Sequence record: SRR20825019_1753
Direction: 5' to 3' (one strand)
DNA: 57,383 bases
The notes beneath the pieces were generated by a model, which made no database searches, was not told where the DNA came from, and saw nothing but the letters and a program-made list of their open reading frames with translations. How positions within the stretch are numbered: the stretch's first letter is position 1; the number at the start of each line of letters is the position of its first letter. The position numbers and the translations under genes are program-made. Shown piece after piece: positions 6,828 to 14,691 of this stretch.

Positions 6828-7024
6828 TAACATGTTGGTCAGCCGGGAGATTTCGACCTTCCGGCTGATTAATTCGCCTTCCCGATCACCCTCATCGAAA
6901 CATTCCATTGAGTATGCTGCGCCAATCGCTTGGCAAATGGCGGGCGAGCTTTTATGTAAAGGGCAAGACAGTAATGACCCCGTGTACGGCACTAGGCCGA
7001 ACCGGCAAGATGAGGACACCAGAC

Positions 7025-7993
7025 ATGGCTGAAACCAAACACACCGACCTGCTTATAATCGGCTCAGGCCCAGCGGGCTACACAGCTGCAATTTACGCTG
7101 CTCGCGCCAGCCTCAACCCAACTATCGTGACCGGTATGCAGGCTGGTGGCCAGTTGACCATCACAACAGACGTGGAAAACTACCCCGGTTTTGCTGACGC
7201 GGTACAAGGCCCAGACCTGATGGAGGCCATGCGCCAGCAGGCTGAAAATGTGGGCACGGACATCGTCTACGATCTCATCACTGAAGTTGACCTCAAGGCA
7301 ACGCCAAAGCGGGCTGTGGGCGATAGCGGCACGGTTTACACCGCAGACGCTGTTGTTATCTCAACCGGCGCACAAGCCAAATGGCTTGGCCTTGAGACAG
7401 AGCAGAAGTTCAACGGATACGGCGTATCTGCCTGCGCAACATGTGACGGTTTCTTCTACCGCGGCAAAGAGGTTATTGTGGTTGGCGGCGGCAACACCGC
7501 CGTTGAGGAAGCGCTGTACCTCGCAAATATCTGCTCAAAGGTGACAATCATTCACCGCCGCGATGAATTCCGGGCAGAAAAAATCCTGCAGGATCGCCTG
7601 TTCTCTACCAAGAATGTTGAGGTAAAATGGGATACGGTGCTCGAAGAAGTTGTCGGCACTGAAGCCCCGCTTGGTGTGACCGGTGTGAAACTGAAGAATG
7701 TGAAAACCGGCAATATTGAAGATGTGGCTGTGCACGGTGTCTTTATTGCCATTGGCCACACACCTTCAACTGAGCTGTTCAAAGGCCAACTGCCGATGGA
7801 CGAAGAAGGTTATCTGTTCAAGAAGCCTGACAGCACCCAAACAGACATCCCCGGCGTTTATGCGGCAGGTGATGTAACTGATAAAGTTTACCGTCAAGCT
7901 GTTACCGCCGCAGGCATGGGCTGCATGGCAGCACTTGAAGCTGAAAAATATCTGGCCGAGCTGCACCACGCTGCCTCCAAAGCAGCAGAATAA
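7025..7993 (+). CDS. trxB: Thioredoxin-disulfide reductase
   Basis: IIGSGPAGYTAAIYAARA, redox CATC, VGGGNTAVEEA, AAGDV, RQAVTAAG; GAGGA RBS before ATG 7025. Confidence 0.97.
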   Translation: MAETKHTDLLIIGSGPAGYTAAIYAARASLNPTIVTGMQAGGQLTITTDVENYPGFADAVQGPDLMEAMRQQAENVGTDIVYDLITEVDLKATPKRAVGDSGTVYTADAVVISTGAQAKWLGLETEQKFNGYGVSACATCDGFFYRGKEVIVVGGGNTAVEEALYLANICSKVTIIHRRDEFRAEKILQDRLFSTKNVEVKWDTVLEEVVGTEAPLGVTGVKLKNVKTGNIEDVAVHGVFIAIGHTPSTELFKGQLPMDEEGYLFKKPDSTQTDIPGVYAAGDVTDKVYRQAVTAAGMGCMAALEAEKYLAELHHAASKAAE

Positions 7994-8193: not shown

Positions 8194-10059
8194 GTGTTCG
8201 ATGCAATAAAAAAACTTCAGACATCTGATCGCAGTGCGAGTGCATCAATCGATGCCCTATCGCGCTCTCAGGCCATGATTGAATTCAAGCCTGATGGCAC
8301 GATCCTGAGTGCCAACAGCCTGTTCCTCCAAACAATAGGCTATACGCTCGCTGAAATTGTCGGCAAGCATCACAGCATGTTTGTAAGGGACGCGGAGGCT
8401 GCGAGCTCCGGTTACAAAGAATTCTGGAGCGCCCTTCGGCAAGGTACCTATCAGTCACGGACCTTCCAGCGGGTTGCCAAAGGTAACCACCCTATATGGC
8501 TCCAAGCCATCTATGTGCCCGTTACCGATAAAAGAGGCCAAGTAGAAAAAGTTATCAAGTTCGCGACAGACATCACTGCCGCTGAACTCAAAAACATCGA
8601 TGCAGAGGGCAAGTTGGCCGCGCTTGACCGGGCGCAAGCGGTCATTGAATTTGAACTTGACGGAACAATCATCACCGCGAACGAAAATTTCCTTGTCGCC
8701 ACAGGGTATACGCTCGAGGAAATCGTCGGCCAGCATCACAGCCTCTTCGTCAAACCCGAAGTGGCCGCGAGCGAAGAATACAAACTATTCTGGCAGCAGC
8801 TGCGCGAAGGCGAGTTCAAAACCGCAGAATTTCAGCGCATCAATAAGAACGGGGACGATATATGGCTTCAGGCTATTTATAACCCGGTCGTGGACCGCGG
8901 CGGCACACCGTTGAAGGTCGTTAAATTCGCGTCAGACATCACCGAACGAAAAATCAGGAACTCTGATTTCCGGGGAAAAATAGAAGCGCTGAACAAGGCG
9001 CAGGCCATCATCGAGTTTGAACTAGATGGTACCATTATTACTGCAAACCAGAATTTTCTGGACGCAGTGGGATATGCCCTCAACGAAATACGGGGGAAAC
9101 ATCACCGCATCTTTGTCGAGCAAAGCCATCACGGAAGTTCGGAATACGCTGCTTTCTGGAAAGACCTAGCGGCAGGCGCCTTTCAGAGCGACGAGTATAA
9201 ACGCGTCGACAAGGACGGAAATGATCTGTGGTTACAGGCTACTTACAACCCGATCTACGGTCCGGATGGCAAGCCCTTTAAAGTGGTGAAGTTTGCCTCT
9301 GACATCACTGAAACCGTATTGGCGCGCGATGAAGCCGCCCGCATTGCGGCTCTGGTTGATACCAATCTGGAAAACATTCTGACATCTGTTTCCGAGGCTA
9401 GAGAGAAATCTGGCTCAGCGGCCAGCGCCTCGAGCCAAACGGACTCCACAGTACAAACTGTTGCTGCCGCCGCAGAAGAGCTCAATATATCCTTTCAGGA
9501 AATCGCCGTGAACGTGGCAACCGCACGGAAGGCCGCCGAAGAGGCAGTAGCGGAGTCTGGTGCTGCCGATGCGTCGACCAAGGAGTTGACTTCGGCGGCT
9601 GAGGCCATGAACAAAATTGTCACTCTCATCAATGACATTGCCTCCCAGATCAATCTTCTTGCCCTTAACGCCACTATCGAATCCGCTCGAGCGGGCGAAG
9701 CAGGCAGAGGGTTTGCGGTTGTCGCAAGTGAGGTGAAAAACCTCGCAAATCAGGTGGGCACTGCCACCAATCAGATCTCTGGCGAAATTGACCGCATGCA
9801 GTCCATCTCATCCGAAGTTGTCCAGAAACTGGGGAAAATCAATAGCTCTGTCACTAACTTGCAAGGAAACGTTATGGAGATTACAAGCTCCATTGACGAG
9901 CAGACCGTCGTAACACGTGAAATATCTGGCAGCATGAACACAGCGGCCACTGCGGTCGCCGACATCAACCAGAACCTGCTTTCCCTGACCAATAACATCA
10001 GCACAGCTAAAGAATATGCGGAGGAAGGCATCACCCTCTATCGCAGCACCAATACGTAA
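8194..10059 (+). CDS. Soluble methyl-accepting chemotaxis protein with three PAS-PAC repeats
   Basis: Three repeats QA(M/V/I)IEFxxDGTIxxANxxFL...GxHHxxFV...WLQAxYxP; MCP tip [34 protein letters not shown]; no TM segment. Confidence 0.95.
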
Positions 10060-10571: not shown

Positions 10572-11465
10572 ATGGACTGGGACAGGTTACGTATATTTCA
10601 CACCGTTGCGGAAAGTGGCAGCTTTACGAACGCCGGTGCACGTCTCAACTGTAGCCAGTCCGCCGTTAGTCGTCAGATCCGGGCGCTTGAGGAAAGCTTG
10701 AATGTTTCCCTGTTCACCCGGCACGCACGCGGCCTTGTCTTAACACAGGAAGGGCAGGAGCTTTATAACACCGCCCGTGAGGTGGTGCTGCGGATCGAAG
10801 AAACCGAACGCAGCCTGATGGAAAGCCGCGAACGCCCCTCAGGCCTTTTGCGGGTAACAACCATGGTTACCTTTGGTGCCGTGTGGCTGACACCGCACCT
10901 TGAGCAGTTCATGACCGAATATCCGGATATCGATATCAAATTGATTCTTGATGACGCAGACCTCGATCTTTCCGCCGGGGAAGCTGACGTCGCCATCCGG
11001 CTGCACGAGCCGGAACAGGCCGAACTTATCCAGCGCCCGCTCGCTACCTTCCACAGCCACATTTATGCCAGCCCCGAGTATCTCGACGCGCGCGGCACGC
11101 CCATCACAACCGATGATCTCGATAACCACGACCTGATCACTTTCGGCATCAGCAACGTGCCCACTATTCGTGGCCTCAACTGGCTACTGACGGTTGGCAC
11201 ACCGCGTAAAAGCCGCGTACCGCGCCTGCAGGTCAACAACCTTTATGGTGTGATGCACGCTGTTGAAGCTGGCATGGGTATTGCCGTACTGCCCGACTAT
11301 CTGGTGCACAACAGGCAAAACCTTGTGCGGGTATTGCCCAAGGCAGAAGGCACGCCGTTCAACGCTTATTATTGTTATGCGCCGGAGCTCAGGGGCTCCC
11401 TTCGCGTGGCTTTGTTCCGCGACTTTATGGTCAGGCAGATCAGAGCAGAGAGCAATATTCTTTAA
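10572..11465 (+). CDS. LysR-family regulator, LsrB/VtlR-like
   Basis: MDWDRLRIFHTVAESGSFT...SQSAVSRQIRALE...LFTRHARGLVLT, the N-terminus typical of the trxB-linked alphaproteobacterial LysR; GGAG RBS before ATG 10572. Confidence 0.9.
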   Translation: MDWDRLRIFHTVAESGSFTNAGARLNCSQSAVSRQIRALEESLNVSLFTRHARGLVLTQEGQELYNTAREVVLRIEETERSLMESRERPSGLLRVTTMVTFGAVWLTPHLEQFMTEYPDIDIKLILDDADLDLSAGEADVAIRLHEPEQAELIQRPLATFHSHIYASPEYLDARGTPITTDDLDNHDLITFGISNVPTIRGLNWLLTVGTPRKSRVPRLQVNNLYGVMHAVEAGMGIAVLPDYLVHNRQNLVRVLPKAEGTPFNAYYCYAPELRGSLRVALFRDFMVRQIRAESNIL

Positions 11466-11494: not shown

Positions 11495-13201
11495 CTACTG
11501 GCAAGCTTCATCACCCGCTTTAATCGTACTTGCCTTGCTGATCAGGTCACCCTCTTCAAGCGCAAACGCCGCCTCCAGGCCTTTGGTCACACGGCCAAAC
11601 ACCGTATAGCGCCCGTTCAGGTGTATGTTATAGGCTGTGTTGATGAAGAACTGCGTGCCGCCGGTGTCGCGCCCCGCTGTTGCCACACCCACGGTGCCGA
11701 TCTGATGATTGCTTTCAAACCATTCCTCACGGATGCTGCCCCACTTGTTAATCTCAGGGTCTTCCGTTTGCCCGGCTTGGGCCACAAAGTTCGGGATAAC
11801 CCGGTGCCACAACATCCCATCCATGCGGCCAGCATCAGCGAGCAGCATGAAATTCGCCGCCGCATAAGGCGCCGATGACGACGGCGCGACACATATGGTG
11901 CCGCGCGTGGTTTCAAGGACCAGCTCACGCTTCTGATAGCTCACCACCAACTTGATTGAAGGGGTTTCGCGCGGCGCTGTTATCGCTTCAATTGATGGGT
12001 CAAGCGCTATCGCGGCCTCACGCCCGCGGTTGGTTTCCGGGTTTGCATCCGCATAAGCCTGAAGCACGGCTTTGCCCTCGTCCGACCGGCTCAGCACCGA
12101 CATCGCCTTGAAAGCCTTGTAATAGTCTTCACGCCGAAGCCATATTCTTGCGAACCTGATCGCCTCACCTTCAGAATGAGCATAAAGACTTTCAAGTGCG
12201 GTTGTGGCCAACCAACTGTTTTGGTCCCCCAATGTTTCCTTGAGCTTTTTCACCACGATTGCAGCGCCCGCATTTCGGCCGCCAAGTGCTGTGAGCGCAA
12301 CCTGACGGGTATGGTCTTCACCCCGGCCAGCAGCCCTCACCAGAGATTTCATCGTCTCCGGGTCTGACAGATACCCCATGGCGCGCAGGGCCGCGAGCTT
12401 GACCGGCATCTCTTCGCTCCCGGCAAGCGCCTGCAGTGTTTCAGCCGCAGGATCACCAAATTGCCGCAACACTCGCACCAGCAGGGTGCGCACAATCACA
12501 TTGTCGGCCTTACTGATAGCCTGCTCAACGGCGCTTTGCTCCAACACGGTGCTGAGCTCGGTAAATCTTGTAAGCAGATAGGCGGCAGCTTCAGCCGTAC
12601 CCATCTCACCTGTTAACGCCAGAAGATTCGTGAAGTCGAGCCCGTCTATATCACCTGCCGCCATCTGGTCATAAACAACCGACTGCAGGAGCCCGAACAG
12701 AGGCATCGTTCGCGGGTTGTCCGGATAGCCCACATTAAACGGGCTACCCGGCTTTATCGCGTTCACTTTCTCAACCAGCAGCTTGCGCGCCGCTGGCCCA
12801 CCGGAAAAACCGAGCGCAGGGTATAGGTAGTCGTCCCCTGCCGTTGCTGGAAGTGCTTCGGGGAACGCTAGCAAGGCATCGCTTAGCTCTGTATCGTGGC
12901 AAAGCATAGCGCCTTTGCGCGCTGCGGCCCGAGCATGAACATCTTGGGCTGTAAGATAGGGGGCTAGTTTGGCGCAGGCTTCGCCACCGATTTGCCCTAG
13001 ATATACAAGCGCCTGATAGTTTTCGCGCGCTAAGGCGTCATCAAACACCTGATTCAATGCGTCACGGGCATCGGTTGCAGCCAGCATTTCGGCATTCAAA
13101 CCGTTAAATTTGTTAACTTCATCATTTTTTTGCCACGCCAAAATAGGCGCTGCATTGGAAAAAGTTAACAAGCCGGCAACAGCTGCGTGCTTGAGTTTCA
13201 T
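11495..13201 (-). CDS. Exported HEAT-repeat protein with C-terminal cyclophilin-type PPIase domain
   Basis: Signal peptide; helical HEAT-like repeats; HRVIPNFVAQAG, GRDTGGTQFFI, HLNGRYTVFGRV. Confidence 0.85.
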   Translation of the reverse strand: MKLKHAAVAGLLTFSNAAPILAWQKNDEVNKFNGLNAEMLAATDARDALNQVFDDALARENYQALVYLGQIGGEACAKLAPYLTAQDVHARAAARKGAMLCHDTELSDALLAFPEALPATAGDDYLYPALGFSGGPAARKLLVEKVNAIKPGSPFNVGYPDNPRTMPLFGLLQSVVYDQMAAGDIDGLDFTNLLALTGEMGTAEAAAYLLTRFTELSTVLEQSAVEQAISKADNVIVRTLLVRVLRQFGDPAAETLQALAGSEEMPVKLAALRAMGYLSDPETMKSLVRAAGRGEDHTRQVALTALGGRNAGAAIVVKKLKETLGDQNSWLATTALESLYAHSEGEAIRFARIWLRREDYYKAFKAMSVLSRSDEGKAVLQAYADANPETNRGREAAIALDPSIEAITAPRETPSIKLVVSYQKRELVLETTRGTICVAPSSSAPYAAANFMLLADAGRMDGMLWHRVIPNFVAQAGQTEDPEINKWGSIREEWFESNHQIGTVGVATAGRDTGGTQFFINTAYNIHLNGRYTVFGRVTKGLEAAFALEEGDLISKASTIKAGDEACQ

Positions 13202-13317
13202 GGCAAAGTCCCCCGCTAATTACCTGTAGATTATAGCCTTTTTTAGTCAGCCTTGCTGTACTATTTTTTCTGGTGACCAGAGCTATTCGTTAATCAAACG
13301 CACTCAAACTGTAAGCC

Positions 13318-13341
13318 ATGCAAAAAACGCATACCTGCCAA
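13318..13341 (+). promoter_or_regulatory. LysR-type box ATGC-N7-GCAT, overlapping GCAT-N3-TG
   Basis: ATGCAAAAAACGCATACCTG: T-N11-A dyad lying 45-60 bp upstream of a CATATA -10-like element (13377-13382). Confidence 0.6.
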
Positions 13342-13390
13342 GACAGAAAAATGGGTTTTCTATTAGGCTTCCCAAACATATATAAACCTC

Positions 13391-13551
13391 ACCGCCAACG
13401 AGCACGGGCTTTGATCACTCCCCCCGATCTCCCCCCAAGCCAAGGCTCCGCGGCGACGTGTTTTTGAGTTTGACGGAATTCCGTCATAAAGGTCGATCCC
13501 GGGTTTCCTCCCCCCTCCCCCACTTCCCCCCGGGATCGACCCTTTTACTTT
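13391..13551 (+). ncRNA. Candidate sRNA with two C-rich-loop hairpins
   Basis: GGGCTTTG/CAAGGCTC stem around 2x CTCCCCCC; palindrome TGACGGAATTCCGTCA; 13-bp stem GGTCGATCCCGGG/CCCGGGATCGACC around a 25-nt TTTCCTCCCC... loop, then CTTTTACTTT; ends approximate. Confidence 0.6.
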
Positions 13552-13552
13552 C

Positions 13553-13637
13553 GTCTCTTGAGTGAGACACGATGAACCTCCCTATGTTGACAAACTTTTT
13601 ATAAAGGCTCCGGCGTATTTGCCGGGGCCTCTTTTTT
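13553..13637 (+). ncRNA. Candidate sRNA or 3' domain (suhB/MmgR-like layout)
   Basis: GTCTC/GAGAC hairpin, single-stranded AACCTCCCT, then a strong terminator. Confidence 0.45.
13603..13637 (+). terminator. Intrinsic terminator with no upstream + strand CDS
   Basis: GGCTCCGGC-GTATTT-GCCGGGGCC followed by TCTTTTTT. Confidence 0.8.
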
Positions 13638-13824
13638 CTATGCGCCTTATAACCGTCAATACAAGTTGACAAAGTTTGATGCAGGTTGCCACCATACCGA
13701 TTATCGCAAAGTGCCAGTTGCTGAGCATTGGCACCGGCATATAGGGGCCCATCATGAAATCACACTTGACCGCGATTGCCGCACGCACCGCGTCCCTTCT
13801 GCGCTGAGAGCCGCATAAACCCAC

Positions 13825-14691
13825 ATGATCAAATCTCTCGTCATATACGGTCTCTTTATAGTTAATTTTTTATTAACTATAAGCAGTACTTCAGCCGCAG
13901 CGGATTTCCACCTGCCGCTCTACGATTCGGATGACAAATATTTCGCTGACGTTCTGCGCCTTGCCTTGAAAGCGGAAGGCGGAAAGCACGAACTTATCAT
14001 TCACGACCACACCGTCGGCCAACTGCGAACCATGCGGGAACTGGAAGAAGGCAAGTTCAATATCTTCTATACAGGTTACTCACGCGAGCGGGAGCAAACC
14101 TTCATCCAGATCAATATACCTCTGGCGCGAGGCCTGCTGGGTTACCGAGTCCTTGCCATTCGTCAGGTGAGTGAAGACCTGATACGCCAGTTGCACGGCT
14201 TCGAGGCGTTCAAATCTGTCGTCACCCTTGGCGCAAACGCGTCCTGGCCAGATACCGGGATTATGCAAAGCGCGGGTCTGCAGGTGATCACAGCCCCCAC
14301 CGACGCCTTATGGCCCATGCTGAAACGCGGGCGCTTTTTGGCGTTCCCGAGATCTATCATTGAGGTGAAACCGGAGCTTGAGCGCTTCGACACGGACGCG
14401 AACAACCCACTGATCATCGCGCCCGATGTCATGCTGGCATACAGATACGATACGTTCTTCTATGTCGCCAAAGGCCGCGATGATCTGGCGCGGATCGTTG
14501 AAGACGGATTAAAAGCCGCGTATGAGGATGGAAGCTTCATGGCGCATTTCAATGCCGATCCCAACATGGCCTACGCGATCAGGCAGTTGAAAGACCATCC
14601 TAGAAAAATTCACTGGATCAACATGCCTGACATGAGCGAAACTACCCACACCATCCCCGAAAAATACTGGCACGACCCGGCTGTCAACTAA
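13825..14691 (+). CDS. Orphan periplasmic solute-binding protein (family 3-like)
   Basis: Signal peptide; SREREQ..IQINIPLARGLLGYR, WPDTGIM, MLKRGRFLAFPR, DGSFMAHF motifs. Confidence 0.75.
   Translation: MIKSLVIYGLFIVNFLLTISSTSAAADFHLPLYDSDDKYFADVLRLALKAEGGKHELIIHDHTVGQLRTMRELEEGKFNIFYTGYSREREQTFIQINIPLARGLLGYRVLAIRQVSEDLIRQLHGFEAFKSVVTLGANASWPDTGIMQSAGLQVITAPTDALWPMLKRGRFLAFPRSIIEVKPELERFDTDANNPLIIAPDVMLAYRYDTFFYVAKGRDDLARIVEDGLKAAYEDGSFMAHFNADPNMAYAIRQLKDHPRKIHWINMPDMSETTHTIPEKYWHDPAVN

Follow-up and report, generated by a model that had tools for sequence, protein, structure and literature searches.

The 57,383-nt stretch from sequence record SRR20825019_1753 (the window, by which we mean the whole stretch analyzed) contains a 623-bp gap at positions 13202-13824, flanked by a divergent minus-strand gene for an exported cyclophilin/HEAT protein (11495-13201) and by an open reading frame (ORF) of 288 amino acids at 13825-14691. 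The ORFs inside the gap measure 44-80 amino acids only (49 on the plus strand; 44, 62, and 80 on the minus strand), and the three small ORFs scanned have no Pfam match. Further upstream on the plus strand lie trxB, which codes for thioredoxin-disulfide reductase (6908-7993), and the gene of an LsrB/VtlR-like LysR-type transcriptional regulator (LTTR; 10572-11465). We found that the elements between 13318 and 13637 together form a single plus-strand transcription unit, in which an LTTR recognition box and a promoter precede a predicted small RNA (sRNA) of ~247 nt (13391-13637). An earlier reading made without database searches (the sequence-only reading) had proposed that an LTTR-type box here precedes an unannotated sRNA gene. 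Conservation, fold, and terminator bear this out, and every element that it had listed is found in place in the sequence. The sRNA is a positional counterpart of the AbcR RNAs with a different and larger body.

Architecture and conservation of the predicted RNA

The start of the RNA is inferred from the -10 element of its promoter, and its end is set by the T-run of the terminator. Between these points (13391-13637), the predicted fold reaches -87.8 kcal/mol (z = -5.6), and none of 200 shuffled sequences was as stable. The 5′ domain, stem-loop (SL) 1 (13392-13453), contains two copies of the C-rich motif CTCCCCCC (13418-13425 and 13429-13436), and the fold places both of these CUCCCCCC motifs within the stem. 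SL2 (13471-13486) is a small hairpin, TGACGG-AATT-CCGTCA, formed by the perfect palindrome TGACGGAATTCCGTCA. In SL3 (13491-13541), the family-wide signature of the RNA, a 13-bp stem (13491-13503/13529-13541), extendable to 16 nt with 94% complementarity, presents a 25-nt C-rich loop (13504-13528) of the sequence TTTCCTCCCCCCTCCCCCACTTCCC. Sequence and fold both indicate another small hairpin, SL4 (GTCTC-TTGAGT-GAGAC), at 13553-13568. The C-rich motif AACCTCCCT at 13575-13583 would form an anti-Shine-Dalgarno (anti-SD) motif, AACCUCCCU, that is predicted to be single-stranded (unpaired in the centroid fold and paired in the minimum free energy fold). It is followed by an A/U-rich single strand (13584-13604), a candidate Hfq site by analogy, and by an intrinsic terminator (13605-13637) with an 11-bp stem (13605-13630) and a T-run to 13637. 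In this fold, CU-rich anti-SD motifs are located in loops and in single strand, as had been predicted from the letters. The heptamer CTCCCCC is not enriched in the window (6 copies observed, 6.8 expected); four of the six copies cluster inside 104 nt of the sRNA region, all on the plus strand.

We compared the region to related loci and genomes (L and G numbers, respectively), with G001 as the nearest complete genome and R1 as a covariance model of the RNA core. By BLAST, 20 of the 25 genomes from the same genus contain the region. The homologous stretch begins where the cyclophilin gene starts and breaks off at 13637, and this holds even for a relative with 91% identity; the unit is thus not a leader of the downstream gene. 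It is barely credible that we are dealing not with an sRNA gene but with such a leader of 13825-14691 or with a small protein gene: small ORFs do overlap the region and the 288-amino acid ORF begins 188 nt after the terminator, yet the sequence beyond the terminator differs in the closest relative, one-base changes in C-run length and replacement of the 5′ domain break every frame, the scanned ORFs are devoid of Pfam matches, and the pattern of conservation is that of stem covariation.

R1 detects a single copy in G001 and matches 36 of 38 family genomes, representing 10 of 11 genera; in the order's other families, it matches 1 of 113 genomes, and weakly (E = 5.6e-4). The regulator gene is near or cut by a contig end in the family genomes G007 and G018, which have no sRNA match; in G142, likewise a family genome without an sRNA match, the regulator is not matched and trxB lies near a contig end. 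Among the loci taken from at least 120 stretches that match a loop-core pattern, only two, both named Kordiimonas records, carry the element, and the window probably comes from this genus; the pattern was too loose to yield a distribution. The conserved core comprises SL2, SL3 with its loop CUCCCCCCUCCCCCAC, the small hairpin, ACCUCCCUAUG, and the terminator.

Covariation was scored for 18 pairs in a 21-sequence alignment of this core. Overall, 98.8% of the cells are paired, and 8 of the 18 pairs have changed on both sides, which was equaled in none of 500 shuffles; sliding the 3′ partner by 1-3 columns lowers pairing to 32-61%. Most of the signal comes from the SL3 stem, in which 7 of 13 pairs changed on both sides with 100% of cells paired, and SL2 contributes one covarying pair of five (A-U to G-C in 2 sequences, 95.6% of cells paired). 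The core of the SL3 loop, CTCCCCCCTCCCCCAC, is nearly invariant. The check proposed with the sequence-only reading, conservation of stems in relatives, thus returned covarying stems together with a retained loop.

The 5′ domain varies, and relatives have a shorter version or another sequence in its place. Its two CTCCCCCC motifs are indeed present, as had been noted, and are restricted to the window's sub-clade; loci L006-L010 have no CU motifs in this domain. At the position of SL4, most relatives have a hairpin of other sequence (judged by eye, uncounted). The motif at 13575-13583 is kept as ACCTCCCTATG across most of the genus, and a terminator is found in 21 of 22 loci. In G147 (L247 3720-4200; G147:C93), one box promoter and one terminator enclose three tandem SL3 hairpins with R1 scores of 54, 45, and 54 bits. 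This triplication marks SL3 as a working module that can be multiplied.

We also compared the stretch to contigs from the runs X1, X2, X3, and X10. The first two runs, whose type is guessed to be RNA, yielded contigs of 190 nt (X1, 13409-13591) and 153 nt (X2, 13460-13612), and X3, a recorded metatranscriptome from a different study, yielded one of 195 nt (13398-13591); X10 does not cover the stretch. All three contigs are wholly inside the predicted RNA (13398-13612) and leave its flanks unreached. The X3 contig differs from the window at 13477, 13504, and 13525, and identical differences are present in L002. As evidence for expression, the contigs are supportive, not conclusive. Those of X1 and X3 share an end at 13591 in the A/U-rich stretch, which might represent a processed 3′ end or the limits of assembly; X2 continues to 13612.

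The sequence-only reading had allowed for one or two sRNAs, and one is the likelier. Two RNAs, the first of ~155 nt and ending after SL3, the other a long one or a second unit, could be imagined, as CCCTTTTACTTT follows the strong 13-bp stem of SL3 and as the halt of two contigs at 13591 might reflect processing. We nevertheless regard this arrangement as very improbable: there is a single conserved promoter and terminator, a second promoter box was not found, L017-L020 and L099 lack the T-tract that follows SL3, and all three contigs, whose ends are not RNA ends, cross this tract (13541-13552). A single unit is the reading that we retain, and 13391-13637 is very probably a real RNA gene.

The regulator, an LTTR-type box, and gene order

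A distance of 1.85 kb separates the end of the regulator gene (11465) from the box, which lies downstream, and the gene product contains the Pfam domains HTH_1 and LysR_substrate. The reading frame stays open as far upstream as 10524, and the gene more likely starts at 10572, because the alignment with LsrB begins at the methionine encoded there and a GGGAGA site is found upstream of it. The protein matches PDB 9HH1, which is Agrobacterium tumefaciens LsrB (PMC11975290), over its full length (residues 17-307) with an E value of 1.1e-86 and 293 bits; the next LTTR in the PDB reaches only 1.7e-32. No paralogue of the regulator above 35% identity over the aligned part is encoded in G001, which has 16 further LysR-like matches. 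By these sequence criteria, the nearby LysR gene, to which the sequence-only reading had assigned control of the sRNA, is the LsrB/VtlR orthologue.

Gene order agrees with this assignment. In all 34 family genomes that have both on one contig, the sRNA is 3′ of the lsrB-like gene on the same strand, at a distance of 170-4458 nt, and in seven family genomes the two are directly adjacent (170-420 nt), with no space for an intervening gene. In 33 of the 34, a trxB gene on the same strand precedes the lsrB-like gene by no more than 6 kb; the window's copy scores 406.6 bits against TIGR01292 (cut-off 343), and the same gene is present in G001. The order trxB-vtlR-abcR1-abcR2 has been described for A. 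tumefaciens (PMC7486931), and likewise trxB-lsrB-abcR1-abcR2 for Sinorhizobium meliloti (PMC3712013). The window's trxB-lsrB-sRNA block is interrupted twice, by a PAS/MCP chemoreceptor gene (8194-10059) between trxB and lsrB and by the divergent cyclophilin/HEAT gene between lsrB and the sRNA. The 288-amino acid ORF on the other side has a hydrophobic N-terminal segment and no Pfam or NCBIfam match, and relatives do not have it in synteny with the sRNA. G001 also contains an hfq gene.

LTTR recognition sites are usually positioned near -66, and the box ATGC-N7-GCAT-ACC-TG (13318-13337, plus strand), a T-N11-A palindrome, is centered at about -66. It is composed of ATGC (13318-13321), N7, GCAT (13329-13332), ACC, and TG (13336-13337), and the right half of the palindrome provides the GCAT-N3-TG portion of the LsrB/VtlR motif. 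The published motif is GCAT-N3-TG-N3-T (PMC7486931, PMC8844928), compared with which ATGC-N7-GCAT would represent a fuller operator. In the S. meliloti promoter PabcR1, the LsrB motif is located between -61 and -49 (PMC8844928); GCAT-ACC-TG in the window is found at about -62 to -54 from the inferred start and thus matches this position. The box occurs in further genera of the window's family. Its weight comes from this conservation, not from its frequency in the window, where ATGC-N7-GCAT is seen 4 times with 2.2 expected, which is singly not significant.

The promoter itself has a -35 hexamer, GTTTTC, that fits poorly to the CTTGAC given in PMC8844928. This weak -35 is overlaid by GGGTTTTCT (13353-13361), a candidate LTTR activation site that is kept as GGGTT(T/C)T(C) throughout the genus and also in several of the family's other genera, and not in L013, L026, L016, and L165. 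The -10 element CATATAT (13377-13383) is of the alphaproteobacterial CTATAT type (PMC8844928) and appears as (C/T)(A/T)TATATAC in 22 of 22 loci; the spacing of box, -35, and -10 is unchanged in 21 of 22. The start of the cyclophilin gene is 117 nt from the box, which may also serve that divergent promoter. More full boxes with an A/T-rich spacer are present in G001 (G001:C1:599807-599826, L174; 1250920-1250939, L176; and 552667-552691). Of these extra copies, one precedes a TonB-C-terminal-like ORF and another forms a near-perfect palindrome. A third, with a CCTCCCTG motif and a T-run behind it, precedes malate dehydrogenase by ~270 nt. All of them are possible further regulon members.

We looked for the same arrangement across the class, in which 109 of the 201 genomes sampled encode a close single-copy homologue of the regulator (E ≤1e-70, 41-57% identity). 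Of the 29 best lsrB loci from other alphaproteobacterial families (L188-L216), 14 have an exact ATGC-N7-GCAT within 1.5 kb 3′ of the gene, with ~0.6 expected by chance; 3 were found upstream. Most of the 14 boxes are at most 140 nt from the end of the protein match.

It is likely that the RNA depends on LsrB. The sRNA could also be real and be controlled by another LysR-type regulator or by none, the link to lsrB then being inherited gene order only. The further LysR-like proteins of G001 and the partial match to the published motif would allow for this, and LsrB dependence is reported for just one of the two abcR genes next to lsrB in A. tumefaciens and in S. meliloti (PMC8844928, PMC7486931). 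We consider this unlikely, however, given that the palindrome recurs after lsrB orthologues in distant families far above chance, that the box is placed like the LsrB site proven for PabcR1 (PMC8844928), and that box and regulator co-occur throughout the family.

Known small RNAs and lsrB-linked RNAs of the class

We compared the RNA to families in Rfam with cmscan, where the gathering scores are 40 bits for ar15, 41 for suhB, 46.6 for SorX, and 47 for 6C. The AbcR/ar15 model (RF02345) has no match in 13150-13880 at E ≤10, none in the window at gathering, and none in the whole of G001 at E ≤1; over 151 class genomes it gave 0 matches above the cut-off, a count that is uninformative on the true distribution of AbcR there. 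SorX (RF02784) has no match in the window at E ≤10. No matching family emerged, in agreement with the sequence-only reading, which had not recognized an exact known family, and no description of the sRNA was found in the literature searched. The RNA defines a family that is absent from Rfam: an enlarged, LsrB-linked anti-SD RNA that is not a member of ar15.

It shares its layout with the AbcR RNAs. AbcR1 and AbcR2 are likewise found 3′ of trxB-lsrB on the same strand, with a GCAT-N3-TG box near -60 in the promoter. Both AbcR and the window RNA have a CU-rich anti-SD motif in a hairpin loop and another in single strand, and they share an A/U-rich stretch, an intrinsic terminator, and modules that are repeated in some genomes. 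According to the published accounts, ar15 RNAs have three hairpins in ~110 nt, with one anti-SD motif in the 5′ loop and a second between hairpins 1 and 2 (PMC3712013, PMC5461406), and an A/U-rich stretch 5′ of the terminator (PMC3712013). The window RNA, in contrast, has five hairpins in ~247 nt, and its dominant seed is the 25-nt C-rich loop of the third hairpin rather than the 5′ loop. It also occurs outside the Rhizobiales, the only order in which the ar15 survey reported homologues (PMC3346310). Whether the two RNAs descend from a shared ancestor is, in our judgment, an evenly balanced question.

Other known RNAs resemble parts of the molecule. In the ar15 survey, the second hairpin and the terminator are described as common to ar15 and suhB (PMC3346310), and the corresponding module, a small hairpin, CCUCCCUA, and a terminator, has the same layout in the window RNA, whose 13575-13583 region contains the 8-mer CCUCCCUA in common with the suhB consensus. 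The window RNA differs from suhB by a longer spacer to the terminator and by its large 5′ domains. VrsA of A. tumefaciens is an sRNA with a VtlR/LsrB box in its promoter (PMC7486931), a likeness by description only, and unlike the window RNA it is encoded elsewhere in the genome, antisense to atu4670 (PMC7486931). The actinobacterial 6C RNA (RF01066), which has hairpins with C-rich loops, gives the only structure-type resemblance on the plus strand over SL2-SL3; this match (21 bits, E = 2.7, gathering 47) involves a different phylum and reflects loop composition alone.

The sRNA-like units downstream of other lsrB orthologues are closer in arrangement. They follow lsrB, are preceded by ATGC-N7-GCAT, and end in a hairpin, CCUCCCU, and a terminator, covering ~200-240 nt from box to terminator. 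The 3′ elements, which usually include an invariant CGUCUCCCAGACGUGAAGCCUCCCUGUU, are found ~170-200 nt beyond the box, and in about half of the 29 loci the unit ends in an invariant CGTCTCCCAGACGTGAAGCCTCCCTGTT and a terminator. Unlike the window RNA, these units lack SL3 (R1 ≤12 bits), and their invariant 28-mer is absent from the window. In Rfam they score 28-43 bits for SorX (RF02784) or match suhB, always below threshold. We rejected kinship with SorX, which comes from the 3′ end of an OmpR-type gene (PMC9438474); such sub-threshold hits represent a resemblance of modules only. The CGUCUCCCAGACG-type RNAs look like a class-wide, unrecorded lsrB-linked RNA. LsrB has been stated to be unique to Rhizobiales (PMC11975290); our survey suggests that the LsrB-sRNA circuit reaches about half of the sampled alphaproteobacterial families.

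Proposed mode of action

We propose that the LsrB/VtlR-like regulator (10572-11465) binds ATGC-N7-GCAT near -66 and would then contact the weak -35 region, turning on a sigma-70 promoter, probably according to redox state. The resulting RNA would fold into five hairpins and expose several CU-rich anti-SD stretches, namely the SL3 loop (family-wide), the single-stranded AACCUCCCU, and, in the sub-clade only, the CUCCCCCC motifs of SL1. By analogy with AbcR, these stretches may pair with the G-rich ribosome-binding sites of several mRNAs and block their translation, and Hfq probably helps, held at the A/U-rich stretch and the poly-U of the terminator. The binding of LsrB, the inducing signal, the role of Hfq, the targets, and their repression are parts of this scheme that we infer from sequence. 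The anti-SD mode is suggested because the CU-rich loops resemble those of AbcR, whose anti-SD seeds have been proven by point and compensatory mutations (PMC8844928, PMC5461406), and we consider it likely that the RNA acts in trans by this type of pairing. A reading of the locus as one trans-acting, LsrB-activated sRNA of ~247 nt that is the counterpart of AbcR is, as a whole, still rather probable.

Several observations weigh against this reading. The sequence-only reading had recognized the GCAT-N3-TG box, and this part stands, at the PabcR1 position; the final T of GCAT-N3-TG-N3-T does not, as it is A in the window and A, C, or G in relatives, and in other families even the TG of the motif is often missing. 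In the regulator, valine aligns with C144, C236, and C244 of LsrB, three of its four cysteines, and redox sensing may therefore differ. The equivalent of Cys273 is present (YYCY), and of the four A. tumefaciens cysteines it is the only one whose single substitution was reported to be H2O2-sensitive (PMC11975290). With regard to the RNA body, the lack of an ar15 match leaves homology with AbcR to position, suhB/MmgR (RF00519) reaches 11.5 bits (E = 3) on 13573-13644, below its 41-bit cut-off, and R2, a model of the class-wide 3′ module, gives 7 bits on the window and 10-18 bits, at the correct place, on 6 of 20 family loci. As the ar15, suhB, and class-wide models all fail, homology of the body to AbcR-type RNAs rests on position and not on sequence; the R2 scores are too weak to claim such homology, and we rejected this line of argument. 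The RNA-run contigs carry no strand or end information, and for X1 and X2 the RNA origin is itself a guess.

The search for targets likewise counts on this side. Complements of a 13-mer of the SL3 loop (at most 2 mismatches) number 62 in G001 compared with 55 for a reversed control; the absence of enrichment for long complements fits short seeds. G-rich 13-mers in G001 are located nearly all on the minus strand before ~2.0 Mb and mostly on the plus strand after, a bias explained by the strand composition of the replichores and unrelated to the sRNA. In a duplex ranking of 79 ORF starts of the window (crude starts, no shuffle control), genes with a G-rich SD scored best, with 29378 sixth, and no functional class was singled out. 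The G-rich ribosome-binding sites to which the sequence-only reading had pointed before 49073, 29378, and 47002 do exist; they are ordinary SD-like sites and are not distinguished as targets.

Some of these features would also be compatible with an RNA whose long C-runs serve chiefly to bind a protein or to act as a sponge. The SL3 loop is much longer and more invariant than a 6-8-nt seed requires, three SL3 hairpins in one G147 transcript recall multivalent decoy RNAs, and long complementary sites are not enriched in G001. We judge this mode to be improbable, somewhat more so than control by another regulator. We identified no C-binding protein as a candidate, AbcR-type CU-rich loops are proven anti-SD seeds (PMC8844928, PMC5461406), and repeated seed hairpins suit base pairing with multiple targets as well. 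Pairing with ribosome-binding sites hence remains our preferred mode of action.

With this locus, a free-living marine family joins Brucella, Agrobacterium, and Sinorhizobium, the genera in which the LsrB/VtlR-sRNA circuit has been studied so far. The locus depicts a target-binding hairpin that is swappable and can be multiplied while promoter, position, and 3′ end stay put. More tentatively, and with considerable doubt, LsrB and its adjacent sRNA might be an ancestral, class-wide alphaproteobacterial module with an ATGC-N7-GCAT operator, to which a new, duplicable ‘super anti-SD’ hairpin would have been added in the family described here. If this is true, one redox-controlled RNA could engage many G-rich ribosome-binding sites at once, or could serve as a multivalent sponge, and would provide the family with a broader and more global translational brake than AbcR.

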